The position numbers were made by a program, and so were the translations under genes. A stretch of 32,000 bases of DNA from Geotalea daltonii FRC-32 (GTDB lineage: Bacteria; Desulfobacterota; Desulfuromonadia; Geobacterales; Geobacteraceae): the NCBI RefSeq assembly GCF_000022265.1, contig NC_011979.1, positions 2,400,001 through 2,432,000 on the forward strand, in the 5' to 3' direction. Positions 5,212-32,000 of this stretch are shown in pieces (within the stretch, counting starts at the first letter, position 1; each line of letters opens with the position of its first letter). Under the pieces are notes generated by a model. That model did no database searches. It was not told the origin of the DNA and was given only the letters and a program-made list of their open reading frames with translations.

Positions 5212-7398
5212 ATGTCAAATAAGCAACCCAGAGGTCAATTAGTGAAACGCTTTCTGCTGCCGTTGCCATTCCTGCTTTTTATTCCCGTGCTTCTCTTTGC
5301 CATGGATTTTCAGATGGTTACTTTCAAGACTGAGAATGCCGGCAAGGTAATTTTTGATCACGATCTTCACTTGAAAAAGCTGGGCAGCAACTGCACCGTT
5401 TGTCATAAATCCATATTTCCCATAACAACAGATGTGCCGCCGGTGACAATGGCCGAGATGGAGCAAGGGAAATCCTGCGGTGCCTGTCATAACAAAACCA
5501 AGGCATTCGGTCTTAATGAATGCGTCAAATGCCACTTGGTCAAGGAAGTACCGATTCAGATCCCCCAGTTCGGCACCATCGTTTTCAGTCACAACTTCCA
5601 TCTCGGCATGTATGGTTGTGGCGATTGTCACAACAAGCTTTTTAAGCCGGCACCAGGCAACCCGCATATTTCCATGCGCCAAATGGAGCAAGGGGCGTCG
5701 TGCGGAGCCTGCCACGATGGGAATACTGCCTTCACAGTCAAGGAAAATTGCACCAAATGCCACGCAGTTAAGGATATTGCCTTTACTGCCGATGCCCTTT
5801 TCAGCCATAAATTCCATCTGGAAATGTACAAATGCGCCGATTGCCACAGCAAACTTTTTGTTGCCGGTCCTGAAAGCAAGCGCCATTCCATGCGTGACAT
5901 GGAACAGGGAAACTCCTGTGGCGGCTGCCATGAAGGCAGTACCGCTTTCAGCGTCAAAGGGGATTGCGGCAAATGCCATACGGCCACAAAGGACATCCCG
6001 TTCAAGGCGACCGACGCACTTTTCAGCCACAAGTTCCATCTGGGTATCTATCGCTGCAACGACTGTCATAGCGGTTTATTTGTCGGCGGCGCCGGCAGCA
6101 AGCGGTATACCATGGCGGACATGGCCAAGCTGAAATCATGCGGCGCCTGCCATGAGGGAGATGTGGCATTTACCGTCAACGCCAACTGCGGCAGGTGTCA
6201 TAAAAGCACAAAAGATATAACCTTCGACATACCGGACATAGGTTCAGTTGCTTTCAGTCATGAAATACATCTGGGCATGTATAAATGCGACGACTGCCAT
6301 AACCAGGTTTTTGCCACCGGGGTGTCACGTAAAAGCTTCATCATGGCAGAGATGGAAAAAGGCAAATCATGTGGGGCTTGCCATGACGGGAAGAGTGCTT
6401 TTACTGCCTCGGCTAACTGCGGGAAATGCCATCCGGTCAAAGACATTACCTTTACCGACGACGCCCGTTTCAGCCACACAAAGCACCTGGATATGTACAA
6501 ATGCGCCGACTGCCATAGCAAATTGTTTGTTGCCGGACCTGACAACAAGCGGCGGTCCATGGCAGATATGGAAAAGGGGCTATCTTGCGGGGCCTGCCAT
6601 GAAGGGAATACCGGTTTCTCCGTCAAGGGAGATTGCGATAAGTGCCATAAATCCACCATGGAAATCGCCTTCAATGTGCCGGCAACCGGGGTAACCTATT
6701 TCAGCCACGCATTCCATACCGGCATGTACAAGTGTGCCGATTGTCATAACGGCATTTTTACTACCGGTGCTTCTGCCAAGCGATATACCATGGGCGATAT
6801 GGAGCAGGGTAAGTCCTGCGGCAGCTGCCATGACTCAAAAACCGCCTTTTCGGTCAAGGACGCTTGCCAGAAGTGCCACCCGGTAAAGGAGATCCAGTTC
6901 AAAGAATCAGGTGCGTCGTTCAGTCACAAGTTCCATCTGGGTCTGTATCCGTGTAATGACTGCCACACCAAGCTCTTTATTCCGGGCAAGGGCAACAGGC
7001 GAGTCAGCATGCCTGAAATGGAAAAAGGGAAATCATGCGGTGCCTGTCACGATTCCAGCACGGCCTTTACCGTTACCGGCAGTTGCAATAAATGTCATAA
7101 TGTTACCAAGGCAGTTAAATACGAGCTGCCGGAAAAGACCGGTAGCGTCTTGTTCAGTCATAAGCTGCATCTTTCCAAAGGGTACAATTGCGGCGATTGC
7201 CACAATGGGATTATTCTGGCAGGTGTCGGACGCAAGCCTTTGAAGATGAAGGATATGGAAGAGGGGAAATCTTGCGGCGCTTGCCATGGTGCAGCCATGG
7301 CCTTCAGCGTCAAGGATGCTGCCAGTTGCGGCAGGTGCCACGGCGGGAGAACCGGCGATATCCCTTCATTCCAGGAGGGTAATGCCCCTCAATTTTAA
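5212..7398 (+). CDS. 27-heme cytochrome c built from nine c7-type triheme domains (secreted)
   Basis: 728 aa with 27 CXXCH motifs, counted by hand. Has an N-terminal hydrophobic signal (KRFLLPLPFLLFIPVLLFA). The start could instead be the GTG at 5242, which follows AGAGG. This is the same architecture as the Geobacter sulfurreducens c7-polymer cytochromes (the 27-heme member is GSU2210, as I recall). Confidence 0.95.
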   Translation: MSNKQPRGQLVKRFLLPLPFLLFIPVLLFAMDFQMVTFKTENAGKVIFDHDLHLKKLGSNCTVCHKSIFPITTDVPPVTMAEMEQGKSCGACHNKTKAFGLNECVKCHLVKEVPIQIPQFGTIVFSHNFHLGMYGCGDCHNKLFKPAPGNPHISMRQMEQGASCGACHDGNTAFTVKENCTKCHAVKDIAFTADALFSHKFHLEMYKCADCHSKLFVAGPESKRHSMRDMEQGNSCGGCHEGSTAFSVKGDCGKCHTATKDIPFKATDALFSHKFHLGIYRCNDCHSGLFVGGAGSKRYTMADMAKLKSCGACHEGDVAFTVNANCGRCHKSTKDITFDIPDIGSVAFSHEIHLGMYKCDDCHNQVFATGVSRKSFIMAEMEKGKSCGACHDGKSAFTASANCGKCHPVKDITFTDDARFSHTKHLDMYKCADCHSKLFVAGPDNKRRSMADMEKGLSCGACHEGNTGFSVKGDCDKCHKSTMEIAFNVPATGVTYFSHAFHTGMYKCADCHNGIFTTGASAKRYTMGDMEQGKSCGSCHDSKTAFSVKDACQKCHPVKEIQFKESGASFSHKFHLGLYPCNDCHTKLFIPGKGNRRVSMPEMEKGKSCGACHDSSTAFTVTGSCNKCHNVTKAVKYELPEKTGSVLFSHKLHLSKGYNCGDCHNGIILAGVGRKPLKMKDMEEGKSCGACHGAAMAFSVKDAASCGRCHGGRTGDIPSFQEGNAPQF
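5341..7341 (+). repeat. Nine tandem coding repeats (72-78 codons each) = c7-type triheme modules
   Basis: The first Cys of each CXXCH falls at residues 61/89/104, 136/164/180, 208/236/252, 282/310/326, 359/387/403, 431/459/475, 508/536/552, 581/609/625 and 660/688/706. The unit is F-x-H-x2-H ... CxxCH ... M-x2-ME-x-G-x-SCGxCH ... CxxCH. Modules 3 and 6 share long near-identical DNA: atgtacaaatgcgccgattgccacagcaaactttttgttgccgg at 5824 versus atgtacaaatgcgccgactgccatagcaaattgtttgttgccgg at 6493. Confidence 0.9.
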
Positions 7399-12031: not shown

Positions 12032-13399
12032 CTACCAGTCTTCCTTCTGCTTTTTCAGTACGTTTTCCAGGTAAATTTCAGGACTGGTCAGTCTTAAAAT
12101 TTCCTTGTCCGTGTAGCCCAGGTCCTTGAAATTCAGGACTCCATTGGGCGCGTGGCAGTTGGCACAGAAAAGGGCCTTGCCTTTTGTCACCAGATGATTG
12201 CTGCCGAAGTAAATGGTCTGCCAGCCAGGAACTGGAGTGTAGTTCTTGATGCCGAGAGTCTTTGCTGCCGAGGCTACTCCTGCCAGAGTATCACCGGTTG
12301 CCATCGGGGGGGCGAAATCCATGGAAAGCAGCTGCCCTGTCTTCTTATCGAAGAAAGCCTTGCCCTGAAATATTTTGAACGGATAAATCTTGCTGCTCTT
12401 GTCTTTTCGGCTGCCCTTCGGCCCGATAAAGGTTGGGGTGTTCTTCACGGTTTTGTTGTACCAGGCATAAACCGGTACCGTCTCATTGGCTTCTTTCCTC
12501 AGGGTAGTCGGCTCGTAAAATTTGTCCGATCCCTGTTCCCACTTGGTGAAATCCTTGGCGAAAGCACCCCCGGTTCTGGGAATATGGCAGGTCTGGCAGG
12601 CGATGCGGGTCGTGTGTCTATTCAGAGCTGCATCCTTGTGTGGGCTGTTACCATGGCAGGCAGTGTCCGCGCAGGATACGCGCACGCCGTCATTGGCCCA
12701 GTTGTTGGGGTCGAAGCCCGTTGGAATTTTGTGGTTTTTTGTTTTATGGCAGTCGACGCAGACCATTCCCTTTGCCGCATGGGCATCTGTTTCCTTGTTA
12801 AATGCAAATCCTCTTTTTACCAGGACTCCACCGCCTGCAGCTTCATGACAGACCATACAGTTCTTCACCGTCGGCTTGCCGATGGCGAGGGCTGCCTTAG
12901 TGCTCCTGTCCTGCCCCATGACGACTTCGCCTTTTTCATTCTTGAAGGGCTTTCTCTGGCGGAAATCGTAGTCGGTCGAATGGCATACCAAGCAGTCTAT
13001 GGCGCCTTCAGCATCTGCGCCGGTGCTTCCCACGTCACTCAAATGATTGCCCGGATGGCAGGTATTACAGCCGGTGAATTTTGTTTTTCCCGTTTCAGGA
13101 CTTTTGGGAATCTCCTTGAGGTTGTTGACGATATCGTTGCCGTTGCACATGGTGTAGATGCGGTTTTTCATGCCGTACTCTTTTTTCGGGTCAAGCCCTT
13201 CAACATTGTTTACCTTTGAGGCATGTTTCCAATGTACCGATTGAAGGAACCCTTTGGTTGTACCGGGATGGCATTCTTCGCAGGTTTCAGGACCCTTATA
13301 GCCGTTTTTCTCAATGCTTTCCTTGCCTGGATGATCAGCGGCCATGACTTGAACCACACCGAGCAACAGGCATAGAACCGTCGCAAAAAAATTCTTCAT
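12032..13399 (-). CDS. Secreted multiheme cytochrome c (7 CXXCH plus one CX4CH, so about 8 hemes)
   Basis: 455 aa with an SPI-type signal (LLLGVVQVMA/ADHP). Heme motifs are CEECH, CNTCH, CLVCH, CMVCH, CVDCH, CQTCH and CANCH, plus CADTACH. RBS is AAGGAG, 6 nt before the ATG. Confidence 0.9.
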   Translation of the reverse strand: MKNFFATVLCLLLGVVQVMAADHPGKESIEKNGYKGPETCEECHPGTTKGFLQSVHWKHASKVNNVEGLDPKKEYGMKNRIYTMCNGNDIVNNLKEIPKSPETGKTKFTGCNTCHPGNHLSDVGSTGADAEGAIDCLVCHSTDYDFRQRKPFKNEKGEVVMGQDRSTKAALAIGKPTVKNCMVCHEAAGGGVLVKRGFAFNKETDAHAAKGMVCVDCHKTKNHKIPTGFDPNNWANDGVRVSCADTACHGNSPHKDAALNRHTTRIACQTCHIPRTGGAFAKDFTKWEQGSDKFYEPTTLRKEANETVPVYAWYNKTVKNTPTFIGPKGSRKDKSSKIYPFKIFQGKAFFDKKTGQLLSMDFAPPMATGDTLAGVASAAKTLGIKNYTPVPGWQTIYFGSNHLVTKGKALFCANCHAPNGVLNFKDLGYTDKEILRLTSPEIYLENVLKKQKEDW

Positions 13400-13967: not shown

Positions 13968-15440
13968 TTAAAATTTGACCTCAAAGGTGGCATAGATATT
14001 CTGAGCAGACTTCAGAGGTGCAAACATTTGCGCATTCATGGGGCTGGCGGTCAGATCTGCAATTTTAACCGGAGCACCCACCCAGTTGTTGCTGCCGGTG
14101 TATTCGAAGTCGTAGTACTGATAGCCGAGCCGGAAGAAGACCTTGCTCAGGTATGAGGAAATGGGCTGCAGCTTCAGTTCCTGAATTATATAAGCTTCAT
14201 AGACATTGCCGCGAGTACCCAGCTTGCTGGTCCACATATCATCAGCTGCCGGATCGAAAGGCATCCAGTATTTGGAACCATAGTTGTATTCAGCGCCGAG
14301 CTTGGTGCCGGTAGGCAGATCATAGCGGAGACCGACATAGGCGGAGTAGCCGGTGTTATCCTTCACATCGGTGCCGTTCATAAGCAGTCCTGCGCCGGAA
14401 TCGGGTGAGCCTGCACCTGCAAGCAATGCATGATTGCCGTTGGGATGGGTGATGCTCATGCCGGTGCTGGCAAAGAGGTTCAAGTTGCCGGGGCCGACAT
14501 TCTTAAGGGTGCTGAGGGCGCCGAGACCATACCAGTCGATGTCGCCCAGCTGGTTGCCCACATTGTTGGGGTTGTCGAAGATGTTGAAACCGCGGTTCCA
14601 CTGGAAATCAAGCCGAAGGGGGTCGGTGTCAATCGGCACGATCTGAATGCCCATCATGTCCGTATCCCGCAGATTGTTCTGGCTGCTGTAGCCGGCTTCG
14701 AAGCCGCGGCCGTAGCACAACTTTGTGTAGGCACCGGGAAGCGCCTCAATGTCAGGAGCGTAACCCAGGGTCAGACCATCGAAGGCATAGTCCACCAGAA
14801 GGCCCGGAACGCCACCATTACCCGGCCTTTCACTGTTTTGCCTGACATGGGTAGGAGAACCGGCGGTTGAGGGGCGGCGGCCGACGGAGAACCAGATCGG
14901 CTGATCGGCGATGTTGCTCCAGGTTGCGAAAACCTGGTCGACGCGCAGGGTGTTGTCGCTGGGAACGTGGCCGATGGTGCCGTCGAGGATCTGGCTGCGG
15001 TCGGCAAAAAAGCCGGCATTGGTGGCATCGGCTGTGCCGTTGCCGGAGGTTTTGTACATGAGCAGCCTGGTTGTAACGGTTACGTCCTTGGTGGCCTTCG
15101 CTTTCAGGTTAAGGCCGAAACGGTTGGTCATAAGCGCATCGTTCTTCGGCTTGGACTCCGGCATCAGCACCGGCATGGCAGTTGGACCCATGAATTGATA
15201 GTAGCTGGGCACTTTGCCGCGCAGGGAATCGACCCGGAAACGGTAGTCGCCGCCGATGGTGAGCCAGCGGCCGATGGATTTCTCATCTGTTTTCTTCGTC
15301 TGCTGCTTCAGTGCTTCGACTTCCTTGGACAGGGCGTCCAACTTCTGCTGCAGGTCCTGGTCTGCCCCCATTGCAGGCATCGGCAGGGTAAATGCGAACA
15401 GCAACGAGCTTAGCAAGGTTTTCTTCAAAATGGGTTTCAT
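13968..15440 (-). CDS. Outer-membrane beta-barrel protein with an N-terminal coiled-coil segment
   Basis: 490 aa. Signal peptide (LLFAFTLPMPAMG/ADQ), then a charged helical stretch (DLQQKLDALSKEVEALKQQTKKTDEK), then alternating aromatic/Gly-rich beta-strand-like sequence. Ends with the OMP-type C-terminus YATFEVKF. Confidence 0.75.
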   Translation of the reverse strand: MKPILKKTLLSSLLFAFTLPMPAMGADQDLQQKLDALSKEVEALKQQTKKTDEKSIGRWLTIGGDYRFRVDSLRGKVPSYYQFMGPTAMPVLMPESKPKNDALMTNRFGLNLKAKATKDVTVTTRLLMYKTSGNGTADATNAGFFADRSQILDGTIGHVPSDNTLRVDQVFATWSNIADQPIWFSVGRRPSTAGSPTHVRQNSERPGNGGVPGLLVDYAFDGLTLGYAPDIEALPGAYTKLCYGRGFEAGYSSQNNLRDTDMMGIQIVPIDTDPLRLDFQWNRGFNIFDNPNNVGNQLGDIDWYGLGALSTLKNVGPGNLNLFASTGMSITHPNGNHALLAGAGSPDSGAGLLMNGTDVKDNTGYSAYVGLRYDLPTGTKLGAEYNYGSKYWMPFDPAADDMWTSKLGTRGNVYEAYIIQELKLQPISSYLSKVFFRLGYQYYDFEYTGSNNWVGAPVKIADLTASPMNAQMFAPLKSAQNIYATFEVKF

Positions 15441-22828: not shown

Positions 22829-23143
22829 ATGAAAATCGAAGATAACAGCCCATCTACTGTGGTTGATCTTCTCAAGCATCAGAAGGTTGAGCAGAACCCA
22901 TCAGGTGTCAATGGGGGGAAAGGCGCCGAGGCTGCTGCCAAAACTGACAAGGGTGGTGATAAGGTCGACATAAGCGTTGGGGCAGAGCGTGTCAACAAGA
23001 CCAGCATCTCACTGAAAGGCCCTGAAAACTTCCGTGCCGACAAGGTGGCAGAGATACAATCAAAGATCGATGCGGGTACCTACCAGGTGAGTGGCCGCGA
23101 TGTGGCTGAGAAACTGATTGCTGCCCTGTCGAAGACAAAATGA
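22829..23143 (+). CDS. flgM: Anti-sigma-28 factor FlgM
   Basis: 104 aa. The N-terminus is disordered and Gly/Lys-rich. The C-terminus (RADKVAEIQSKIDAGTYQVSGRDVAEKLIAAL) fits the FlgM family signature. A sigma-28 promoter lies immediately upstream. Confidence 0.75.
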   Translation: MKIEDNSPSTVVDLLKHQKVEQNPSGVNGGKGAEAAAKTDKGGDKVDISVGAERVNKTSISLKGPENFRADKVAEIQSKIDAGTYQVSGRDVAEKLIAALSKTK

Positions 23144-23165
23144 TTTTTGCAAGAATAGATTCAAG

Positions 23166-23193
23166 GAAAGCCCGCGCATAGCGGGCTTTTTTA
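23166..23193 (+). terminator. Rho-independent terminator after flgM
   Basis: AAAGCCCGC-gcata-GCGGGCTTT followed by TTTATT. Confidence 0.75.
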
Positions 23194-23279
23194 TTGCCGG
23201 GAAAGAGCCGAATAAATTGGAGCCTGTGATTTTGGCCAATAGGAGGGCAGAAGCAGAGGCCTTTTTCAGCAAAAACCTG

Positions 23280-23308
23280 TTGACAAAAGAGAAGCCCATA
23301 GGCTAAAT
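23280..23308 (+). promoter_or_regulatory. Sigma-70 promoter of tRNA-Gly
   Basis: TTGACA (23280-23285), a 17-nt spacer, then CTAAAT (or TAAATA), 14 nt upstream of the mature tRNA 5' end. Confidence 0.55.
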
Positions 23309-23322
23309 ATAACTTTCGTTTT

Positions 23323-23397
<75 letters not shown>

Positions 23398-23407
23398 AAG
23401 AAAACTA

Positions 23408-23440
23408 AAAGGGCTGATCTCCACGATCAGCCCTTTTTTG
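23408..23440. terminator. Bidirectional terminator between tRNA-Gly and the convergent merR-family gene
   Basis: AAAAGGGCTGATC-tccac-GATCAGCCCTTTTTT. It has A and T runs on both sides. Confidence 0.75.
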
Positions 23441-23476
23441 TGCCTCTGCCATGCCTTTGGCTACAGTGTGTGATGG

Positions 23477-23887
23477 TTACCCGTTCTGACTGCTTAGCCT
23501 GAACCGTTCAATTATCTTTAGCCGGTAATCGACGATTTCTTTTCTCAAAGAGGCAAGCTGTGCCATTTTCTCGTCAACTTTATTAATGTGCTGATCAAGA
23601 ATCTCAATCAGGCGCGGGATCATTTTGTCAGTTTGTTTCGCGTCGCCATATGCGGAATAGAGATCCTGCATTTCCCTTATGGTAAGCCCCAGCTCCTTCA
23701 ACTTCAGGATGAATTTTATTCTCCTGACGTAGTAGGGGGTAAATCCCCTGGTGGCACCATCCTGTCGCTGGACCGATTCGATTATCCCCACTTCTTCCCA
23801 ATAACGCAGGGTTCTGGTCGTCAGGCCAAATGTTTTTGCCAAGTCACCTATTGATTCTGTTTCTTCGCCTTCTTTAAGTTCGCTCAT
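23477..23887 (-). CDS. MerR-family transcriptional regulator
   Basis: 136 aa. N-terminal wHTH (IGDLAKTFGLTTRTLRYWEEVGII) followed by a coiled-coil dimerisation helix. No metal-binding Cys residues. It is divergent from an acyl-CoA dehydrogenase, an arrangement reminiscent of LiuR-type regulators. Confidence 0.88.
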   Translation of the reverse strand: MSELKEGEETESIGDLAKTFGLTTRTLRYWEEVGIIESVQRQDGATRGFTPYYVRRIKFILKLKELGLTIREMQDLYSAYGDAKQTDKMIPRLIEILDQHINKVDEKMAQLASLRKEIVDYRLKIIERFRLSSQNG

Positions 23888-23897
23888 TTATCTTACC

Positions 23898-23907
23898 TTT
23901 ACGTAAA
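23898..23907. promoter_or_regulatory. Perfect 10-bp palindrome TTTACGTAAA in the merR leader (candidate operator)
   Basis: It lies 11 nt upstream of the merR start codon. It shares the ACGTAA core with the tandem AAACGT repeats at 24016-24029. Confidence 0.4.
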
Positions 23908-24008
23908 TGCATACCTTTTAGACCATGCGTCTGAATTTGTCAACTACTGGTTGGCTGAATTGATAATAAAGATAAATTTGATATTATATAAATGTGTTTT
24001 ATTTATAG

Positions 24009-24037
24009 TTGACATAAACGTAAACGTAATATATTTT
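24009..24037 (+). promoter_or_regulatory. Candidate promoter of ACAD1 with tandem AAACGT repeats in the spacer
   Basis: TTGACA (24009-24014), a 17-nt spacer, then TATTTT (24032-24037). The spacer contains AAACGTAAACGTAA (24016-24029). MerR-type regulators characteristically bind within the -35/-10 spacer. Confidence 0.35.
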
Positions 24038-24143
24038 CGCTGCATTAGTCATCTCCCCAAGAGGTGATCTATGACGGGGGCAGGAACTTTGACTGAAAAT
24101 CGCCGCTGCCGGGGGTTGTTTCTAAGAATTTATGGAGGGCAAT

Positions 24144-25283
24144 ATGGATTTCGAGTTGAGTCAGGACCACAAAGTATTGCAGAGCGCTGTTCGTGACTTC
24201 GTCGAGAAAGAGATAAAGCCGATCGCCATGCAGATCGACGAGGAGCACATGATTCCTGAAAGCCTGGTCAGGAAGATGGGGGTGATGGGTTTTCTCGGCA
24301 GCTATCTTCCCGATGAGTACGGCGGCGCCGGCCTTGACATGCTGTCCTACTCCATCCTCGTGGAAGAGGTGTCGAAGGCCTGCGGCTCCAGCGGTGTTCT
24401 CATCTCGGCTCATACTTCTCTTGCCTGCGGCCCGATTTTTACCTTTGGTACTGAGGAGCAGAAGAAGAAATGGCTGCCGGCCTTGAATATGGGGCAGGTC
24501 ATTGGCTGTTTCCTTCTGACCGAGCCTGATGCGGGAAGCGATGCAGGCGCTATTGCCACTACCTATAAGCATGACGGGGACGACTTCGTCATCAACGGCT
24601 CAAAAATATTCATTACCAACGGGGGATACAAAGGAACCGGCGTTCTTTTTGCTACCTCGGACAAAAGCCTCAAGCACAAGGGCGTATCTGCCTTTATCAT
24701 CGATCTCCAGTCCCCAGGGGTCGAGATCCTCAAGAATGAGAAGAAGCTTGGTATCCGCGGCAGCTATACAACTGCTTTCGCTCTGGATAATGTGCGAATA
24801 CCGGCGGCGAACCTGCTCGGCCAGGAAGGGGAGGGGTTCAAGATAGCCATGGATACCCTGAATGGGGGCCGCATCGGCATTGCCTCCCAGGCACTGGGCA
24901 TTGCTGAGGGCGCCTTCGAACGGGCACTTGCCTACTCCAAGGAGCGCAAGCAGTTTGGGGCTCCCATTTCTGATCTGCAGGCAATCCAGTTCAAGCTGGC
25001 CGACATGTATGCCCGGATCGAGACGAGTAAACTGATGACTTACAAGGCTGCCTGTCTCAAAGACAAGAAGAAGAACTACACAATGGAATCTGCCATGTGC
25101 AAGATGCTCGCTTCCGAGGCAGCCACGTACGTCACCAAGGAGGCGATCCAGATCCACGGCGGCTATGGTTTCATCGTTGATTATGAGGTGGAACGGATGT
25201 ACAGGGATGCCAAGATCACCGAGATTTACGAGGGGACAAATGAGGTGCAGAGAGTGGTGATCTCAAAATTACTGCTTTCTTAG
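24144..25283 (+). CDS. Acyl-CoA dehydrogenase, short/medium-chain (butyryl-CoA dehydrogenase-like), called ACAD1 here
   Basis: 379 aa counted from the ATG at 24144, which lies 5 nt after GGAGG (the track start is 24132). Starts MDFELSQDH, with LTEPDAGSD and FITNG motifs and the catalytic-base motif ITEIYEGTNEVQR. Confidence 0.93.
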   Translation: MDFELSQDHKVLQSAVRDFVEKEIKPIAMQIDEEHMIPESLVRKMGVMGFLGSYLPDEYGGAGLDMLSYSILVEEVSKACGSSGVLISAHTSLACGPIFTFGTEEQKKKWLPALNMGQVIGCFLLTEPDAGSDAGAIATTYKHDGDDFVINGSKIFITNGGYKGTGVLFATSDKSLKHKGVSAFIIDLQSPGVEILKNEKKLGIRGSYTTAFALDNVRIPAANLLGQEGEGFKIAMDTLNGGRIGIASQALGIAEGAFERALAYSKERKQFGAPISDLQAIQFKLADMYARIETSKLMTYKAACLKDKKKNYTMESAMCKMLASEAATYVTKEAIQIHGGYGFIVDYEVERMYRDAKITEIYEGTNEVQRVVISKLLLS

Positions 25284-25372
25284 GGGGAACTTCCATAGGT
25301 GCGTAAGTGGGGACTCTGGCGGCCCACATATCTCCAATTTCATCGATTGGTCCGACTCCGGAATCTGCCGAT

Positions 25373-26068
25373 TCAGAACCAGCAGTTTCCGTCTATGCCG
25401 GCAATAATCTCTCCCGGCGAGCGTTCGACCGTAAGCTTCCTGGCAGGAACATCCAGGTAATAGGTGAGATAATATGCAAGCCTTGCGTTGCTCAAGATAG
25501 ATTCTTTGAAAACGACGATATTACTTCCCTCACATCGCGCAGATCTTGCCAGAAGGCCCGGGTGTCCCTCTTTCTGCAATCTCTTGCCAATCTGCCGGGT
25601 AAAAGCATAGTCATTGGCCAGCAGTTGCGGGTATTCTTCACATTTGCCGGTTAAGTCACACAGTACGGCGTTACACGATACCCAATATACCGCCCTTTCC
25701 CGAATAACCACCCCATCCTGACCCTCGATGGCCAGCTCCGTTTTCAACATGTGGTAAGCTGTTTCGTAAATGGTCGTTTCACTCTCCAGTGCCCCGTACC
25801 ACGTGCCATAAGTACCATCTCCGAAGCGGGAGTGCATGAATGGCTGTGTTTCGAAAGGATATCCGATCGCCGTCGAATAGGAAAACCCGCGGTTGATGAA
25901 TCCGGCAGGCAATGTTTTTTTAACATGAGCCTCAACATGAGCGGCTATGGCCGATAGCTCAGCATCTCCACCCGTCAGGTCGTCAAACAGGTCCTGGGAT
26001 TCCCGCAGAGAGACAATGTTTCTGAATATGTCCTGGGCGATTTCACGGGCCACATCAAATAGCGGCAT
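25373..26068 (-). CDS. RES-domain toxin
   Basis: 231 aa. The R/E/S signature is in HSRFGDGTYGTWYGALESETTIYE and LLARSARCEGSNIVVF. The start overlaps the antitoxin stop (ATGTAATG on the minus strand). Confidence 0.85.
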   Translation of the reverse strand: MPLFDVAREIAQDIFRNIVSLRESQDLFDDLTGGDAELSAIAAHVEAHVKKTLPAGFINRGFSYSTAIGYPFETQPFMHSRFGDGTYGTWYGALESETTIYETAYHMLKTELAIEGQDGVVIRERAVYWVSCNAVLCDLTGKCEEYPQLLANDYAFTRQIGKRLQKEGHPGLLARSARCEGSNIVVFKESILSNARLAYYLTYYLDVPARKLTVERSPGEIIAGIDGNCWF

Positions 26069-26475
26069 TACATTCCCCTGACAAGATCGAGATATCGGGA
26101 TACCTTTGCAATACCTATGATTCCTTCATCGAGCATTAGATCGAGAGGCTTCATGTTGTTGAATGCCAGGTTACGCCGTGTCACCCAGGAATACCGCAGT
26201 TCCTCATTTTGCGGGTATAGAAGGCGCAAGGCCTTGTGAATCGCCAATAACCATCCCACTCGATCCTGCACATCCCGTGAAGGAGGCAATGGCTCCCCCC
26301 TGCGGTATTTGGACAGTAATGACCTGCTTGTTTCGCTCAACCCCAAGAGGTTTAGCTGGTCGGATGTTGAGATGTCCCAGAGATCGAACAGCCGGGTGAT
26401 TAGCTTGGCCATCTTTCCCCTTGCTTCAGGAACCGATAAATCAACCCTATGGTTGTCCAGCGCAGCTTGTGGCAT
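26068..26475 (-). CDS. Xre/MbcA/ParS-type antitoxin (DUF2384 C-terminal toxin-binding domain)
   Basis: C-terminus is WVTRRNLAFNNMKPLDLMLDEGIIGIAKVSRYLDLV. I place the start at the ATG at 26475, preceded by GGGGGA. The track TTG start at 26511 falls inside the promoter/operator. Confidence 0.8.
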   Translation of the reverse strand: MPQAALDNHRVDLSVPEARGKMAKLITRLFDLWDISTSDQLNLLGLSETSRSLLSKYRRGEPLPPSRDVQDRVGWLLAIHKALRLLYPQNEELRYSWVTRRNLAFNNMKPLDLMLDEGIIGIAKVSRYLDLVRGM

Positions 26476-26500
26476 GCCGTCCCCCTTCGTCTTTTGTTTA

Positions 26501-26529
26501 AGTATAAACAAAATTTATTTATACTTCAA
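26501..26529 (-). promoter_or_regulatory. Toxin-antitoxin promoter with overlapping inverted-repeat operator
   Basis: The minus strand reads TTGAAG (26529-26524), a 17-nt spacer, then TATACT (26506-26501). A perfect 9-bp inverted repeat AAGTATAAA-N9-TTTATACTT (26500-26508 / 26518-26526) covers both hexamers. Confidence 0.65.
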
Positions 26530-26664
26530 CAAAAAGAGACGACTGCAAATTTCCATTACCCATGTGCAAGTAAAGACATCAATAAAATTGGATGAATTGC
26601 CGGATGGTCAAAAAAAGAGGGGGCCGGCGTTTAAGAGAGGATTCGTGGTTAAAAGTCTCAGGTC

Positions 26665-28311
26665 TCAGTCCATCCCCAGGCGGTTCATTTTTTTATAGAG
26701 AGCGGTGCGATGAATTCCGAGCATGCGGGCGGCGAGGGCTCGATTACCCCCGGCAGCCTGCAGGGCAGATTCAATCGCGATACGTTCAGCTTTATACAGC
26801 TGCTCTTCAAGCGTGCCAGAGACTGCTGCATTAAGCCCTTTGTGGAGGGTTGGCGGTAAATGGTGCGGCTCGATGGTCAATCCTTGAGCTTTCCAGACCA
26901 TCTGGCGCATGAGGCTGCGCAACTCCCGCACATTGCCCGGCCAGTTGTGGGACATGAGCGCGTCGGTTGCTGCCGGGGAGAGCTTCGGCGTGGGGAGACG
27001 CTCGCGGCGGGATATTTCCGCGAGAAAGTGCCTGGCTAGAAAGGGGATATCTTCGGGGCGTGACCGCAGGGGCGGGAGCTCAATGGGAAATTCGTTGATG
27101 CGGTAGTAGAGATCGCTACGGAACTTGCCGTTATTGACGTTGGTGCCCAGATCGCGGTTGGTGGCGGCTACCAGGCGGAAATCCACAGGTATCGGCGCCG
27201 TGCCCCCCAGACGGTCGATCTTGCGGTCTTCGAGCACCCGCAAAAGTTTGGCCTGGCTGTCCAGGGGGAGTTCTCCCACCTCGTCGAGGAAAAGGGTGCC
27301 GCCGTTAGCCAGTTCGAATTTCCCCGGTTTTCCTCTCTTCTTTGCCCCGCTGAAAGCCCCCTCCTCGTAACCGAACAGCTCCGATTCTATCAGGTCGCGG
27401 GGGATGGCGCCGCAGTTGATGGCAATGAAGGGGCCTTTCCTTCTGGCTGAACCTTCATGAAGTGCCTGGGCAAACAGCTCCTTGCCGGTGCCGCTCTCTC
27501 CCAGAATCAGCACCGTGGCGGAGGAATCGGCAATGCGGCGCGCCTGGTCCATCAGGGCCAGCATGGCCGGATTTTTCGTGAGGATGTTGTCGAAAGAGCA
27601 GCGGTGTCTGCGCATCTCATCCAACAGGGTCTCATAGCGTTCCACCTGCAGCTCCATGGCCCGCACCCGCCCGGCCAGTTCTTCAACCTGTTCGGTGCTT
27701 TTGAAGAGGATTCTGCCGAAGGCGCCGATCACCCGATTTTCGCGCCTGATGGGAAGGTTCACCGTCACCTTGGTCTGGCCGCGCAGATCCACCACCTGGG
27801 CCCGTTCGGGCACACCGGTGCGAGCCACGTCAGACAGGTGGCTTTTGGGAGCGATATCCGTGAGATCCAGCCCCATCCCGCTGCCGCTTTTGAGCCCCAG
27901 CCAGCGTTCATTGGATGAGCTGAGCAGCGTCACCTTCCCTGCAGTATCGACTACCGTCAGCCCCTCATAGGGGTTATCCAGCACCAGCCGGACCATTTCC
28001 TCGTTCAGGGTCGATTTGCCGTAGGGTCCAAGAATCTGGTCTGCAGCATGTACCGGTCGGATGACCAGCACCTCGACCTGTTTATTGCCCTCGGCCTGGA
28101 CGAACCATTCTTTTCCGAAAAATATCCATTCCCCCTGTTTCAGCTCGCCCAGTTCCCGGGGAAGTGGGGCACCCTCCCTGATATCCAGATCTGCAGTGTC
28201 GAAGAAATCTTTGTTCAGAGCGGCAACGTGCCCGTCTTTAGCCAAAAGGATAATGCCGCATCGGCAGTAGGCTGCCTTTCGGAGCAGTGTATGGGTGGAA
28301 ACTGTATCCAT
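26665..28311 (-). CDS. Sigma-54-dependent transcriptional activator (N-terminal sensor + PAS + AAA+ + Fis-type HTH)
   Basis: 548 aa. Walker A (GESGTGKE), a GAFTGA-type loop (EGAFSGA), Walker B (GTLFLDEVGE) and a C-terminal HTH (NRALAARMLGIHRTALYKKMNRLG). I do not recognise the first 90 aa or so. Confidence 0.93.
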   Translation of the reverse strand: MDTVSTHTLLRKAAYCRCGIILLAKDGHVAALNKDFFDTADLDIREGAPLPRELGELKQGEWIFFGKEWFVQAEGNKQVEVLVIRPVHAADQILGPYGKSTLNEEMVRLVLDNPYEGLTVVDTAGKVTLLSSSNERWLGLKSGSGMGLDLTDIAPKSHLSDVARTGVPERAQVVDLRGQTKVTVNLPIRRENRVIGAFGRILFKSTEQVEELAGRVRAMELQVERYETLLDEMRRHRCSFDNILTKNPAMLALMDQARRIADSSATVLILGESGTGKELFAQALHEGSARRKGPFIAINCGAIPRDLIESELFGYEEGAFSGAKKRGKPGKFELANGGTLFLDEVGELPLDSQAKLLRVLEDRKIDRLGGTAPIPVDFRLVAATNRDLGTNVNNGKFRSDLYYRINEFPIELPPLRSRPEDIPFLARHFLAEISRRERLPTPKLSPAATDALMSHNWPGNVRELRSLMRQMVWKAQGLTIEPHHLPPTLHKGLNAAVSGTLEEQLYKAERIAIESALQAAGGNRALAARMLGIHRTALYKKMNRLGMD

Positions 28312-28420
28312 AGATCAACATGTCTCCTTTCAGATACACCTCGCGCAGGAGTGGGTGGTGGCGTGGCGAGGTGGGGCTGTATACGTTTGTCTACATGTTT
28401 ATATTTATAGCACATGGTGT

Positions 28421-28432
28421 TATACATGTATA
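28421..28432. promoter_or_regulatory. Perfect 12-bp palindrome TATACATGTATA (candidate enhancer/UAS for the EBP)
   Basis: It lies about 60-70 bp upstream of the -24 element. A second ACATGT core at 28393-28398 is 31 bp away, roughly three helical turns. Confidence 0.35.
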
Positions 28433-28490
28433 TGACAAAATAGCATATTTATTTCAATATGTTATGCAATTATATTTTACGGGATCTGAT

Positions 28491-28506
28491 TGGCACATAC
28501 TGTGTA
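28491..28506 (+). promoter_or_regulatory. Candidate sigma-54 (-24/-12) promoter of the ACAD2 operon
   Basis: TGGCAC-atact-GTGTA compared with the consensus TGGCAC-N5-TTGCA/T. The -24 element is perfect and the spacing correct, but the -12 keeps only the G of GC. It lies 45 nt upstream of the ATG at 28551 and is divergent from a sigma-54 EBP. Confidence 0.4.
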
Positions 28507-28550
28507 ATAGAAAACTGTTATATGGATTATGAAACTAAGGAGGAACCAAG

Positions 28551-29693
28551 ATGTTTACCCATAATGAAGAGATCCGCATTGCCGCGGACACCATCCGCCA
28601 GGCGGCGCGGGAGCGAATAGCTCCCCTGGCCGCCTCCATCGACGCCACCGGTGAGCTCAACCAAGAGGTGACAACCCTGCTGTGGGACCTGGGGCTCATG
28701 ACCCTGGTTTTTCCCGCCGAACATGGGGGCGCCGAGCAGAGCCAGGGAACGCTGCTCTGTACGGCGGTGGAGGAGATCGCCCGCCACTGCGCCTCGTCGG
28801 CACTGATGTTGATTATTCAGGCCGTGGGCAGCTATCCCCTGCTCCATGGCGGCAGCAAGGAACTCCTCGACCGGGTGCTGCCGCGAATAGTTGCCGAGCG
28901 AGAACTGGCCGCCTACCTGGTTTCCGAACCCGGCGCAGGCTCTGATGTTGGGAACATCCGCACCACAGCTGTCAGGGACGGCAATCACTATGTCATTTCC
29001 GGCACCAAGTGCTTCTCCACCAACGGCCCCATTGCCTCTTTCTATACGGTGCTGGCTCGAACCTCGGAGAACGGCCGTAACGGCCTCACCTTCTTCCTGG
29101 TGGAACGGGACACCCCGGGCTTTTCCGTGGGCAAGATCGAGAAGAAACTGGGGCAGCGGGGCTCCAAGACATCCGAAATGTACCTGGACGAAGTGCGGGT
29201 GCCGGTGGGGAACCTGCTCGGCGAGGAAAACAAGGGCTTCAATCTGGCCATGAAGGACTTCGACATGTCACGTCCCGCCATCGGCGCCCAGGCCCTGGGG
29301 ATTGCCGAGGGAGCATTCGACCAGATGCTCCGCCATGCCAGGGAGAGAAAAACCTTCGGCCAGGCCCTCTGCGAGCACCAGATGATCCAGCAGATTATCG
29401 CCGACAGCGCCACGGCCATCGAGGCGGCCCGCGGGCTGGTCTACCGGTCTGCAGCTCTCTACGACCAGGGGCAGCGCAACACCAAGCTCGCCTCCATGGC
29501 CAAGCTCTTCGCCTCCGACGCCGCCATGAAGATCACCACCGACGCCATCCAGGTCTTCGGCGGCTACGGCTACATGCAGGACTACCCCGTGGAGCGGATG
29601 TTCCGGGATGCCAAGCTCACCCAGATCTTTGAGGGGGCAAACCAGATCCAGCGGCTGGTCATTGCCAGGGAAATACTGAAAGAGACCGCCTGA
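28551..29693 (+). CDS. Acyl-CoA dehydrogenase family protein, called ACAD2 here
   Basis: 380 aa. RBS is AAGGAGG. Has VSEPGAGSD and FSTNG motifs and the catalytic-base motif [13 protein letters not shown]. Confidence 0.9.
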
Positions 29694-29960
29694 AAGAATA
29701 AACGGACAGCAGAGAAAATAAGGTTCATCCGGGAATTCGATGGAAATAAAAGGCAGTCGCGACATCGTCCGTTCGCTCTGTCGCCACAGCTGCGGACCTT
29801 GTGGCGCTGCCCGCGTAATGGTGCATGATGCTTGAATTGGCGGGTTGCCTCCGTTCCACATGCGGCGGGTGTCCGCTCGCCGCTGCAGCTCGTCGCTCTC
29901 TCCCGATGCCACGACTGCCTTCCCAGGAAATATCTGAATAACTGACACAAGGAGACGACC

Positions 29961-31103
29961 ATGAAACACTTGACCGAAGAACAGAGACTAACCCTGGAAA
30001 TGGTGCGCGATGTCGCAATCCGGGAAATCGCCCCAAGGGCCCAGGAACTGGACGAGAAATCACTCTTCCCCGAACATGCCCGTGACCTTTTTGCCCAGCT
30101 CGGGCTTTTGAACCCGCTTCTGCCGGCTGCTTACGGGGGCACCGAAATGGGCATAGCCACCGTCGTCCTTATTCTGGAGGAAATCTCCCGGGTCTGCGCG
30201 TCCACCGCCCTTTTATTGATCGGCCAGTTCGACGGCATGCTCCCCATCATCCACGGGGGAAGTCCGGCCCTGAAAGAAAAATTCCTCCCCCGCTTCAGCG
30301 GCGAATCGAAGCTTTTGACCGCCCTGGGGGCAACGGAGCCAAATGCCGGCTCGGACCTGCTGAACATGAAGACCCGCGCCGAGCGTAAGGGGGACAAATA
30401 CGTCATCAACGGCCAGAAATGCTTTATCACCAACGGCTCCGTTGCCGATATCACCGTCGTCTATGCCTATACCGACCCGTCCAAGGGGGCGAAGGGGATC
30501 AGCGCCTTTGTCGTGGAGCGGGGCACACCGGGCCTCATCTATGGCCGTGACGAAGTGAAGATGGGGATGCGCGGATCCATCAACTCCGAACTCTTCTTCG
30601 AAAACATGGAAATCCCCGCCGAGAACCTGATCGGCGAAGAGGGGACCGGCTTTGCCAACCTCATGCAGACCCTTTCGGTGAACCGCATCTTCTGCGCCGC
30701 CCAGGCGGTTGGCATTGCCCAGGGTGCCCTGGAGATCGCCATGAACCATGCCCGTGAACGGGTCCAGTTCGGCAATACCATCGCCCACCTGACCCCGATC
30801 CAGTTCATGATCGCCGATATGGCCACCGCCGTGGAGGCTTCGCGGCTCTTGACGAGAAAGGCCGCCCAGCTGGTGGACGAGCACGATAAAAAGGCCGTCG
30901 TCTTCGGGGGAATGGCCAAGACCTTCGCCAGCGACACCGCCATGCAGGTAACCACCGATGCGGTCCAGGTGCTGGGGGGCTCCGGCTACATGAAGGAGAA
31001 CAACGTGGAGCGCATGATGCGCGATGCCAAGCTTACCCAGATCTACACCGGCACCAACCAGATCACCCGCATGGTCACCGGCAGGGCCTTGTTATTCCAG
31101 TAG
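29961..31103 (+). CDS. Atypical acyl-CoA dehydrogenase family protein, called ACAD3 here (no canonical catalytic Glu; Asp91). Candidate cyclohex-1-ene-1-carboxyl-CoA dehydrogenase
   Basis: 380 aa. RBS is AAGGAG. The ACAD fold is clear ([36 protein letters not shown]). The catalytic motif reads YTGTNQITR, with Thr in place of Glu, and residue 91 is Asp (GQFDGML). Confidence refers to the ACAD-family call. The specific function is inference, at about 0.45. Confidence 0.9.
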   Translation: MKHLTEEQRLTLEMVRDVAIREIAPRAQELDEKSLFPEHARDLFAQLGLLNPLLPAAYGGTEMGIATVVLILEEISRVCASTALLLIGQFDGMLPIIHGGSPALKEKFLPRFSGESKLLTALGATEPNAGSDLLNMKTRAERKGDKYVINGQKCFITNGSVADITVVYAYTDPSKGAKGISAFVVERGTPGLIYGRDEVKMGMRGSINSELFFENMEIPAENLIGEEGTGFANLMQTLSVNRIFCAAQAVGIAQGALEIAMNHARERVQFGNTIAHLTPIQFMIADMATAVEASRLLTRKAAQLVDEHDKKAVVFGGMAKTFASDTAMQVTTDAVQVLGGSGYMKENNVERMMRDAKLTQIYTGTNQITRMVTGRALLFQ

Positions 31104-31149
31104 ATTTGACAGTCATGATTTTCTTGCAATGATAAAGGAGCCGGTAGCG

Positions 31150-32000
31150 ATGCGCAGACTCTTCATATATGTTTTGGCCGCAGGGATGCTGGCAGTTCCT
31201 GCGGCGGCCCAGGAAATTCCCCGGGATGTACCCCAGACCACCTACAATTGCGATTTCGATCCGGCCTGCGAGGTGAGCCCCGGCATTTACGGCAAGATGT
31301 CTTCCCCCGTCAGCAGCAAATTCAAATTGTCCATTGGCGGCTTCGTCAAGCTGGATTACATCTACAACTCGGTCAATCTGGGGTCGGCCAATACTATCGG
31401 CACGGTTGCCACCCTGCAGCCGAACGGCATACCCAAATCCGGTTCTGCCGCAGGCAAACAGGATCAATCCCTGTTCAGCGTCCGCCAGAGCCGCCTCTGG
31501 TTCAAGGCCGACGGACCGCCTCTTTTGGGGGCCAAGACCGGCGCCCTCATCGAGACCGATTTCTTCGGCTCGGGGGGGAGCAGCGCCGAATCGGCAAATA
31601 TGCGGATTCGGCTTGCCTATGGCACCCTCGACTGGACCGATACCCAGTTTCTCTTCGGCCAGTCCTGGGATCTCTTTGCCCCGGCGGCTGCCTCGACCCT
31701 TGACTTCGGCCACGGCCAGACGGCTGGCAATCCTACCACGCCGCGGGTCCCCCAGCTTAGGGTGACCCGGAAGGTTACCCTGGACGACCGGAATTCCCTT
31801 AAGTTGATCGCAGCCCTGCAGAACCCCATTCAGAACACCAACACGGCCAACGGCACCCCCGGAGAGACCTGGGGGGCCAAGCCCAATGTTGCAGGACAGG
31901 CCATGTTCGTCAGCAAGGCTCTGGGGGTCGCCCCCGGTTTCTGGGGGCTGCCCATGAATTCATTCACCGCCGGTCTCTTCGGCCTGTACGGCAACCAGGA
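31150..32000 (+). CDS. Putative outer-membrane porin, 3' end outside the window (absent from the supplied ORF track)
   Basis: I translated this by hand from the ATG at 31150 (AAGGAG lies 9 nt upstream), giving 283 codons with no stop up to the window edge. Signal peptide is MRRLFIYVLAAGMLAVPAAA/QE. Beta-strand motifs follow (FKLSIGGFVKLDYIYN, LFSVRQSRLWFKA, MRIRLAYGTLDW, FLFGQSWDLF) and resemble DcaP/OprO-like porins. Confidence 0.65.
   Translation, partial: MRRLFIYVLAAGMLAVPAAAQEIPRDVPQTTYNCDFDPACEVSPGIYGKMSSPVSSKFKLSIGGFVKLDYIYNSVNLGSANTIGTVATLQPNGIPKSGSAAGKQDQSLFSVRQSRLWFKADGPPLLGAKTGALIETDFFGSGGSSAESANMRIRLAYGTLDWTDTQFLFGQSWDLFAPAAASTLDFGHGQTAGNPTTPRVPQLRVTRKVTLDDRNSLKLIAALQNPIQNTNTANGTPGETWGAKPNVAGQAMFVSKALGVAPGFWGLPMNSFTAGLFGLYGNQ

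Follow-up and report, generated by a model that had tools for sequence, protein, structure and literature searches.

A locus at the end of the 32-kb stretch of Geotalea (formerly Geobacter) daltonii FRC-32 DNA analysed here (the window) is probably the G. daltonii version of the Geobacter-type module for anaerobic degradation of cyclohexanecarboxylate (CHC), a reading to which we assign a probability of roughly 0.8. It consists of a gene for a sigma-54 enhancer-binding protein (the activator), divergent from a co-oriented series made up of two acyl-CoA dehydrogenase (ACAD) genes, ACAD2 and ACAD3, and an open reading frame (ORF) for an outer-membrane porin. An initial annotation made from the sequence alone had described this layout with the same coordinates, and had also remarked on the 46-nt gap after ACAD3 without a terminator; our scan of the plus strand likewise finds no terminator-like site there. 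Locus tags Geob_2189–2191 were assigned by accession order. Public sources call ACM20543.1 only a generic sigma-54 regulator and Geob_2192 only a hypothetical protein or porin, and the more specific names given below are proposed here:

26665–28311, minus strand: Geob_2189, sigma-54 enhancer-binding protein (activator), 548 aa, 100% identical to ACM20543.1
28551–29693, plus strand: Geob_2190, ACAD2, predicted cyclohexane-1-carbonyl-CoA dehydrogenase (ChDH; NF043006 equivalog)
29961–31103, plus strand: Geob_2191, ACAD3, predicted 1,4-dehydrogenating ACAD (Ch1DH; PDB 7P98 match)
31150–32000, plus strand, running off the window: Geob_2192, DcaP-like outer-membrane porin, 100% identical to ACM20546.1, with residues 1–283 of 448 inside the window

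The evidence for this assignment begins with the two dehydrogenases. ACAD2 scored 704.5 bits against NF043006, the NCBIfam equivalog model for cyclohexane-1-carbonyl-CoA dehydrogenase (cut-off 650), its residues 1–379 aligning to profile positions 1–379 of 380, and shares 88.7% identity with the gene occupying the Gmet_3307 position in Geobacter metallireducens (a tag that we derived from the gene's position relative to the 7P98 sequence), likewise adjoining a Gmet_3306 ortholog. The canonical catalytic Glu is kept at the 363-aligned position (F-E-G), as in all orthologs examined, and residue 91 is Val. Similarity to the AliB/BadJ type was low: TIGR03207 (cut-off 575.35) gave 190.7 bits for ACAD2 and 189.1 bits for ACAD3, and PDB 7XP7 was matched only at 1e-48. 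We predict that ACAD2 is a canonical 1,2-dehydrogenating cyclohexane-1-carbonyl-CoA dehydrogenase. ACAD3, for its part, matched PDB 7P98 over residues 1–379 on 1–379 (E 2e-212) and is 84.2% globally identical to Gmet_3306, the protein of that entry. It keeps Asp91, Asn241 and Tyr362 and has Thr363 in place of the catalytic Glu; in this family, 1,4-elimination is explained by catalytic Asp91, acting as the base at C3, together with loss of the canonical Glu (PMC9293079). ACAD3 is accordingly named here as a predicted 1,4-dehydrogenating ACAD yielding cyclohexa-1,5-diene-1-carboxyl-CoA. The twin ACADs of cyclohexanecarboxylate type that had been proposed from the sequence are thus recovered in model score, ortholog identity and active-site signature, and the pair did not fall into the butyryl-, glutaryl- or isovaleryl-CoA dehydrogenase groups.

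We then compared the locus with that of G. metallireducens GS-15 (contig L096, CP000148.1), where the gene starting with the 7P98 sequence is flanked as in the window. Besides the two dehydrogenases, the neighbouring activator (76.8% identity), the porin (80.8%) and the CoA transferase at the Gmet_3304 position (89.7%) all have G. daltonii counterparts, and because this locus supplies both matching flanks and ortholog identities, the proposal of a CHC pathway is upheld. In G. metallireducens, G. grbiciae, C. bemidjiense and C. bremense, the cluster reads activator, ChDH, Ch1DH, variable gene, CoA transferase, porin, the variable gene being an Oah-like hydratase in Geobacter (Gmet_3305 is Oah2; PMC1924859), a thiolase in C. 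bemidjiense and a 392-aa ORF in C. bremense (domains not scanned). Geotalea sp. SG265 has the same gene set without the variable gene, and both Geotalea genomes carry the porin and a small lipoprotein beside the transferase, in either order. In G. metallireducens (L096:9630-14036) and G. grbiciae (L084), a thiolase, the alpha and beta genes of electron-transfer flavoprotein (ETF) and a further porin paralog with 63.7% identity to Geob_2192 directly follow the porin; none of these is present at the G. daltonii locus.

In all, activator orthologs stand divergently beside twin-ACAD operons in eight other loci, including, outside the Geobacteraceae (65–72% identity), Desulfoprunum benzoelyticum, a Deferrisomatales genome and a metagenome contig. 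On the Desulfoprunum contig only the ChDH-type gene is complete; the second ACAD of the metagenome contig has the full Ch1DH signature, and that of the Deferrisomatales genome keeps D91 and N241 with L362/H363 instead. An AMP-forming ligase replaces the transferase in the latter two. Linkage of transferase and porin recurs in seven loci with differing gene orders; transferase, porin and lipoprotein stay together in contigs of other context, and in one (L088) the transferase–porin pair lies beside other dehydrogenase and hydratase genes. Because these adjacencies outlast repeated rearrangement, we consider them good evidence that activator and porin are functionally coupled to the CHC pathway.

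The initial annotation had placed the activating CoA transferase or ligase beyond the window, and the transferase was indeed recovered there, on Logan contig L001, which we took as the extension past the window end because it overlaps the last 2113 bp with zero mismatches. The contig continues through the 448-aa porin, a 106-aa lipoprotein, the 437-aa CoA transferase, a 616-aa fusion protein, an HDAC-family protein and the start of a ligase gene:

L001:2618–2938: predicted lipoprotein, 106 aa, with a LAAC lipobox and C-terminal YRENQFR
L001:3033–4346: Geob_2194, CoA transferase, 437 aa, ~1.9 kb beyond the window end
L001:4435–6285: fusion of a transferase domain (acetyl-CoA hydrolase/transferase) with a GNAT acetyltransferase, 616 aa, upstream of the ligase gene
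L001:6272–7273: HDAC-family deacetylase, just upstream of the ligase gene
L001:7546–7581: 36-bp palindrome resembling the upstream site described below, before the ligase gene
L001:7732–7768: second promoter copy with upstream block, before the ligase gene, ~7.6 kb past the window end

Geob_2194, whose linkage is conserved along with its identity to the Gmet_3304-position gene, is 90% identical to the in-cluster gene of G. grbiciae versus 79% to a paralog in the same locus. It has the N- and C-terminal AcetylCoA_hydro domains of Pfam and passes no NCBIfam equivalog model (347 bits versus a cut-off of 675 for butyryl-CoA:acetate). Elsewhere it has been treated as a benzoate-CoA transferase, marking a carboxylation route of benzene degradation (PMC11497800); judging from orthology and context, it is more likely a CHC CoA transferase. 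The AMP-forming ligase is orthologous, at 72–82% identity, to ligases within activator-linked operons of L092 and L093, which gives G. daltonii two activating enzymes, transferase and ligase. The pair of GNAT fusion and HDAC-family protein recurs in L087, L089 and L094. As for the 106-aa lipoprotein, it directly follows the porin in Geotalea-like loci (copies in L087 and L088 are 48–55% identical), is lacking in the Geobacter and Citrifermentans clusters, and returned no match in Pfam or NCBIfam.

Turning to the activator, we found Sigma54_activat (PF00158) at residues 244–411 (E 3.6e-70), an AAA lid and a Fis-type HTH_8 (PF02954) at residues 508–544; its translation includes the Walker A motif GESGTGKE and a GAFTGA-type loop, EEGAFSGA. 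Its layout reads as follows:

Residues ~1–90: PAS-like module
Residues ~100–205: PAS
Residues 206–234: coiled-coil linker
Residues 244–411: AAA+, followed by the lid
Residues 508–544: HTH_8

The PAS domain, which the initial annotation had reported along with the sigma-54 activator assignment, appears in Pfam only as a sub-threshold PAS_4 match (E 0.07) and emerges instead from structure prediction. An AlphaFold (AF2) model of residues 1–235, built from 49 sequences (pLDDT 85.8), contains two beta-beta-alpha-alpha-beta-beta-beta modules followed by a long helix, and Foldseek matched it to PAS and tandem-PAS structures at probability 1.0—among them the PAS domain of CitA and the tandem-PAS or N-terminal sensor regions of PpsR, DhaR, FixL and TyrR. 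The N-terminal domain had also been called unrecognised, and residues 1–100 are in fact nearly without sequence relatives beyond the orthologous family: exhaustive phmmer against 1.84 billion representatives returned seven matches, the strongest four comprising one full-length protein (an orthologous activator) and otherwise short fragments, and the other long protein among the seven being weak (E 3.6e-4). A word-indexed homolog search with the N-terminus alone gave five matches only, and more distant PAS-containing activators align only from about residue 100 on. What went unrecognised is therefore probably a family-specific, PAS-like module of about 100 residues, as modelled. As effector, CHC or a CoA ester of it is the obvious candidate.

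The intergenic region shared by the activator and ACAD2 contains the elements through which such a protein might act:

28303–28320: upstream site 1, TGTATCCATAGATCAACA, overlapping the activator start codon and ribosome-binding site (RBS) region
28378–28395: upstream site 2, TGTATACGTTTGTCTACA, an 18-bp imperfect palindrome of pattern TGTATMC-N4-GKCTACA, ~105 bp upstream of the -24 box
28490–28523, plus strand: proposed sigma-54 promoter, TTGGCAC-ATACT-GTGT, with the -24 GG at 28492–28493 and the -13 G at 28504, followed by conserved block AATAGAAAACTGTTATAT

Repeats and palindromes are present upstream, as had been noted, and so is the TGGCAC-N5-GTGT element reported before a strong RBS: TGGCAC-ATACT-GTGT lies at 28491–28505, and the RBS of ACAD2, AAGGAGG at 28537–28543, is 7 nt before the ATG. 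Across six orthologous promoters with ~50% background identity, neither TTGGCA nor the TG at -14/-13 varies, and G. metallireducens has both; the -24 GG (TTGGCAC, 28490–28496) and TG occur at exact sigma-54 spacing in eight of the eight promoters compared. Support for the -24/-12 element comes from this conservation in related loci and not from the motif itself. Taken together, these comparisons suggest that the promoter is very probably real and sigma-54 dependent, with an unusual -12. Upstream site 2, which we propose as the candidate activator binding site, is located 77–92 nt from the activator start codon in 8/8 loci (seven plus G. metallireducens), its most divergent copies being those of Citrifermentans (TGTTTCC-N4-GGCTACA); the pattern TGTATMC-N4-GKCTACA has three matches in the window versus 0.26 expected (0/100 shuffles), all confined to the activator–ACAD2 intergenic region. 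Site 1 is a direct repeat of site 2 at 75-bp spacing with two mismatches to the pattern. Its conservation is partly explained by coding sequence and RBS, making it weaker evidence than site 2, and it is a possible second activator site or autoregulatory site. A near-identical second promoter copy, TTGGCACATTCAGTGTAATAAAAAACTGTTATAT, and the upstream block precede the ligase gene in both Geotalea genomes, so that the Geotalea regulon appears to comprise two transcription units. We make no claim for IHF, since a good consensus match between upstream site and promoter is present in Citrifermentans and not in G. daltonii. Sigma-70-like sites at 31106–31133 (plus strand) and 28496–28469 (minus strand) were unconserved and at chance frequency, and were treated as chance.

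The porin has a signal peptide and ends in YFF, and its AF2 model is a beta-barrel (pTM 0.80) in which residues 9–54 have pLDDT <50 and include a conserved Cys pair and no clear coiled coil. The parallel to Acinetobacter DcaP drawn in the initial annotation reappears in structure comparison: DcaP (6EUS) is by far the top Foldseek match (E 3.4e-20, TM 0.84 normalised to target; next match 2.4e-12). Searches by sequence were less informative—NCBIfam gave no match, a profile of the porin family run against PDB sequences returned only noise, and PF19577 (DcaP) was matched by 17 of 58 porin relatives (best E 6e-8). Geob_2192 might best be described, from its model, as DcaP-like in fold and function, without being filed as a Pfam DcaP member.

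One feature overlooked by the initial annotation is the 267-nt gap between ACAD2 and ACAD3 (29694–29960), most of which is taken up by a repeat element:

29716–29940: palindromic repeat element, ~215–225 bp, with inverted ends carrying AAGGCAGTCG(Y)G(R)CATCG

The element is lacking in the Geobacter and Citrifermentans clusters, where the corresponding gaps are 41–46 nt. In Geotalea sp. SG265 it is present at the same place and again elsewhere, in an intergenic copy that is 87.6% identical (L094:8367-8587 and L094:12401-12616). The two Geotalea genomes share 90.7% identity in the spacer, compared with ~70% for third codon positions of the flanking genes and 69.6% for the activator–ACAD2 intergenic region; given this conservation above its flanks, the element is likely either constrained or kept alike by homogenisation of its copies. 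The folding energy of the spacer RNA was not significant (z = -0.84), and a consensus fold of the three copies showed no useful covariation. Rfam had no match to the element, and a scan of 23000–32000 with E up to 1 left both the promoter region and the spacer empty (a tRNA and two sub-threshold matches lay elsewhere). A metagenome scan for extra copies yielded no more than this locus again, from a strain with 99% identity. Small ORFs in the spacer (30–38 aa, one with a CxxxCxxC-like stretch) were rejected, having neither an RBS nor tblastx support.

These elements can be assembled into a model of the pathway and its control. CHC would cross the outer membrane via the DcaP-like porin and be converted to cyclohexanecarboxyl-CoA by Geob_2194, the ortholog of Gmet_3304, and possibly also by the downstream AMP-forming ligase. 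After the predicted ACAD2 step, ACAD3 would carry out its unusual 1,4-dehydrogenation, and the resulting cyclohexa-1,5-diene-1-carboxyl-CoA would enter the benzoyl-CoA pathway because it is the product of benzoyl-CoA reductase. The divergent activator would use its tandem PAS-like N-terminus to sense CHC or an intermediate in CoA-thioester form, bind TGTATMC-N4-GKCTACA, probably also at the second copy 75 bp off, and spend ATP opening the TTGGCAC-N5-GTGT promoter, so that CHC would induce an operon transcribed across the 267-nt spacer; the ligase gene would be driven by the same promoter type. A more ambitious version of this model, to which we give slightly less than even odds as a whole, would make Geob_2189 and its orthologs, including the gene beside Gmet_3307, an undescribed dedicated regulator of the CHC pathway that binds CHC or a CoA intermediate at its N-terminus, recognises the 18-bp site, drives a class of sigma-54 promoter without the -12 C, and in Geotalea controls both the dehydrogenase/porin/transferase operon and the AMP-forming CHC ligase; the ligase may additionally be under control of the GNAT fusion and HDAC protein, and the ~215-bp repeat would have a function, as RNA or as DNA, and not be junk.

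Several observations weigh against assigning the locus to CHC degradation in this way. The -12 element of the promoter is non-canonical, GT, GA or GG and not GC (the -12 base being T, A or G and never C in every ortholog), and the -24/-12 motif alone is not above chance, with 14 matches at up to two mismatches versus ~20 expected in the window. The spacer with its repeat could disrupt or modulate the joint transcription of ACAD2 and ACAD3. The porin falls under every Pfam threshold and has no PF19577 match even at E up to 1, and genes for an inner-membrane transporter, ETF and dch/had/oah are all lacking at the G. daltonii locus. The label of benzoate-CoA transferase attached to Geob_2194 in PMC11497800 also counts here; the text consulted there gives no biochemistry for it. 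Finally, the functions of Gmet_3307 and Gmet_3304 are taken from secondary citations (PMC9795900, PMC9293079) and general knowledge, and a literature search for growth or expression of G. daltonii on CHC found none.

We therefore weighed what else the locus might do. That same label is one of the grounds for broader or different substrates—alkyl-substituted alicyclic (naphthenic) acids or cyclohexene carboxylates, or a transferase that mainly activates benzoate—as are the active-site-lining differences A88G and T90F (the latter beside D91) between ACAD3 and Gmet_3306, the presence of two activating enzymes, and the other dehydrogenase and hydratase genes adjoining the transferase–porin pair in L088. 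Still, this seems unlikely to us, as the transferase is syntenic with and nearly 90% identical to the gene at the Gmet_3304 position, is closer to the in-cluster G. grbiciae gene than to the paralog, and accompanies an ACAD2 that passes the model specific to CHC-CoA. It is very improbable that the dehydrogenases run reductively and make CHC, by fermentation or as an electron sink, in the manner of Syntrophus aciditrophicus: Geotalea respires metals and is no syntrophic fermenter, the closest orthologs and the whole gene order fit the degradative G. metallireducens cluster, and the genes have an uptake porin and two enzymes for acid activation linked to them. Reversibility in principle and the service of the same enzyme family in fermentative CHC formation in S. 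aciditrophicus (PMC9293079) are what can be said for that direction. Both ACADs do have the generic three-domain architecture of their superfamily, with matches to numerous ACAD structures of short- and medium-chain type (E 1e-80 to 1e-99), yet the idea that they are ordinary short-chain enzymes of the butyryl, glutaryl or isovaleryl type, breaking down fatty acids or amino acids, is essentially refuted by the tests already run, because ACAD3 has Asp91 instead of the Glu needed by all 1,2-dehydrogenating ACADs and ACAD2 passes a specific equivalog while lying far under the cut-offs of the glutaryl-, isovaleryl- and acryloyl-type NCBIfam models.

On the regulatory side, transcription might be independent of sigma-54 or of the neighbouring activator, with TTGGCAC serving as a conserved operator or belonging to a sigma-70 promoter, and with the activator acting on some other target. 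The missing -12 GC and the chance-level motif would fit this, as would the strongly conserved downstream block (AATAGAAAA..GTTATA), which is outside the sigma-54 consensus, and the sigma-70-like match on the opposite strand (28496–28469). We consider it a decidedly unlikely account, however, given that an enhancer-binding protein with intact AAA+ and GAFSGA loop accompanies the operon across at least three orders, that GG and TG keep exact sigma-54 spacing in all eight promoters compared, and that no conserved sigma-70 -35/-10 pair with workable spacing is present. A literature search on CHC and sigma-54 returned nothing relevant among its top-ranked results.

The remainder of the window contains other genes of some interest. 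Between a third ACAD gene (ACAD1; 24132–25283, plus strand) and the activator gene lies a RES toxin/Xre-MbcA-ParS antitoxin pair (25373–26511, minus strand) that is missing from the matching position in Geotalea sp. SG265. ACAD1 passed no specific NCBIfam model (the top one, of acryloyl-CoA reductase type, gave 469 bits versus a 640 cut-off) and is not linked with the CHC genes in SG265, the one related genome examined on this point. It follows a tRNA-Gly(CCC) gene (23323–23397, plus strand), just 5' of which the housekeeping genes guaB and guaA end; the tRNA may mark an island boundary. Further away are a 728-aa c7-type multihaem cytochrome with nine Cytochrome_C7 stretches (5212–7398, plus strand) and a second multihaem cytochrome with a DUF3373 protein (12032–13399 and 13968–15440, both minus strand).

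G. daltonii was isolated from the subsurface and has been studied as a degrader of benzene and toluene. The locus predicts that it can also degrade alicyclic acids, and this is of practical use in annotation and in work on the bioremediation of naphthenic-type acids, without opening a new field. The predicted enzymes are plain orthologs of those in a characterised pathway. The activator, its binding site, the two-copy non-canonical promoter, the linked DcaP-like porin and the ligase-side acylation-type module were not found described in the searchable literature, and no published regulator of this CHC pathway was found in the literature searched.

Comparison with known systems places these parts in context. 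The bad-ali genes of Rhodopseudomonas palustris and Aromatoleum are under the MarR-type repressor BadR and are not known to be under a sigma-54 activator. That route (AliA ligase, AliB dehydrogenase, BadK/BadH/BadI; PMC9795900) has no 1,4-dehydrogenase step, and ACAD2 lies outside its AliB-type family as defined by TIGR03207. The GNAT-fusion/HDAC pair recalls control of the CHC ligase AliA by RpPat/LdaA in R. palustris (PMC6640162). The Syntrophus system shares the same two enzyme types and the family's 1,4-dehydrogenation chemistry (PMC9293079), a likeness drawn from description and not from sequence, but there the enzymes serve fermentative CHC formation, unlike the degradation proposed for G. 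daltonii; the closest Syntrophaceae loci in our genome scan are at most 66% identical to ACAD3. With enhancer-binding proteins of the DhaR, TyrR and PrdR/AcoR type, the activator has the sensor-AAA+-HTH_8 layout in common—PrdR being its best NCBIfam match (residues 103–544, below cut-off), with no equivalog model passed—and it differs from PAS-sensor members of the class in its first ~100 residues, without detectable relatives outside the orthologous family. Acinetobacter baumannii DcaP (6EUS; bioRxiv 10.1101/306035; PMC12338516) resembles Geob_2192 in structure and in linkage to carboxylic-acid catabolism, whereas the two are only 18% identical and Geob_2192 has the low-confidence 9–54 region with its Cys pair in place of a clear coiled coil.

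The closest counterpart is the G. metallireducens cluster (Kung et al. 2014, cited through PMC9795900; PMC9293079), which has in common with G. daltonii the orthologous enzymes, divergent activator, porin, upstream site and TTGGCAC promoter. G. daltonii differs in carrying the porin and 106-aa lipoprotein between Ch1DH and transferase, in being without the Oah2 paralog (Gmet_3305, PMC1924859), in having the ~215-bp repeat between the ACAD genes, and in an additional downstream block, where the transferase-GNAT fusion and HDAC-type deacetylase are joined by an AMP-forming ligase that has a promoter copy to itself. The regulatory model proposed here is testable, and each of its components (the activator, the 18-bp site, the non-canonical sigma-54 promoter and the DcaP-like channel) recurs at the G. 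metallireducens locus, which has been studied experimentally.

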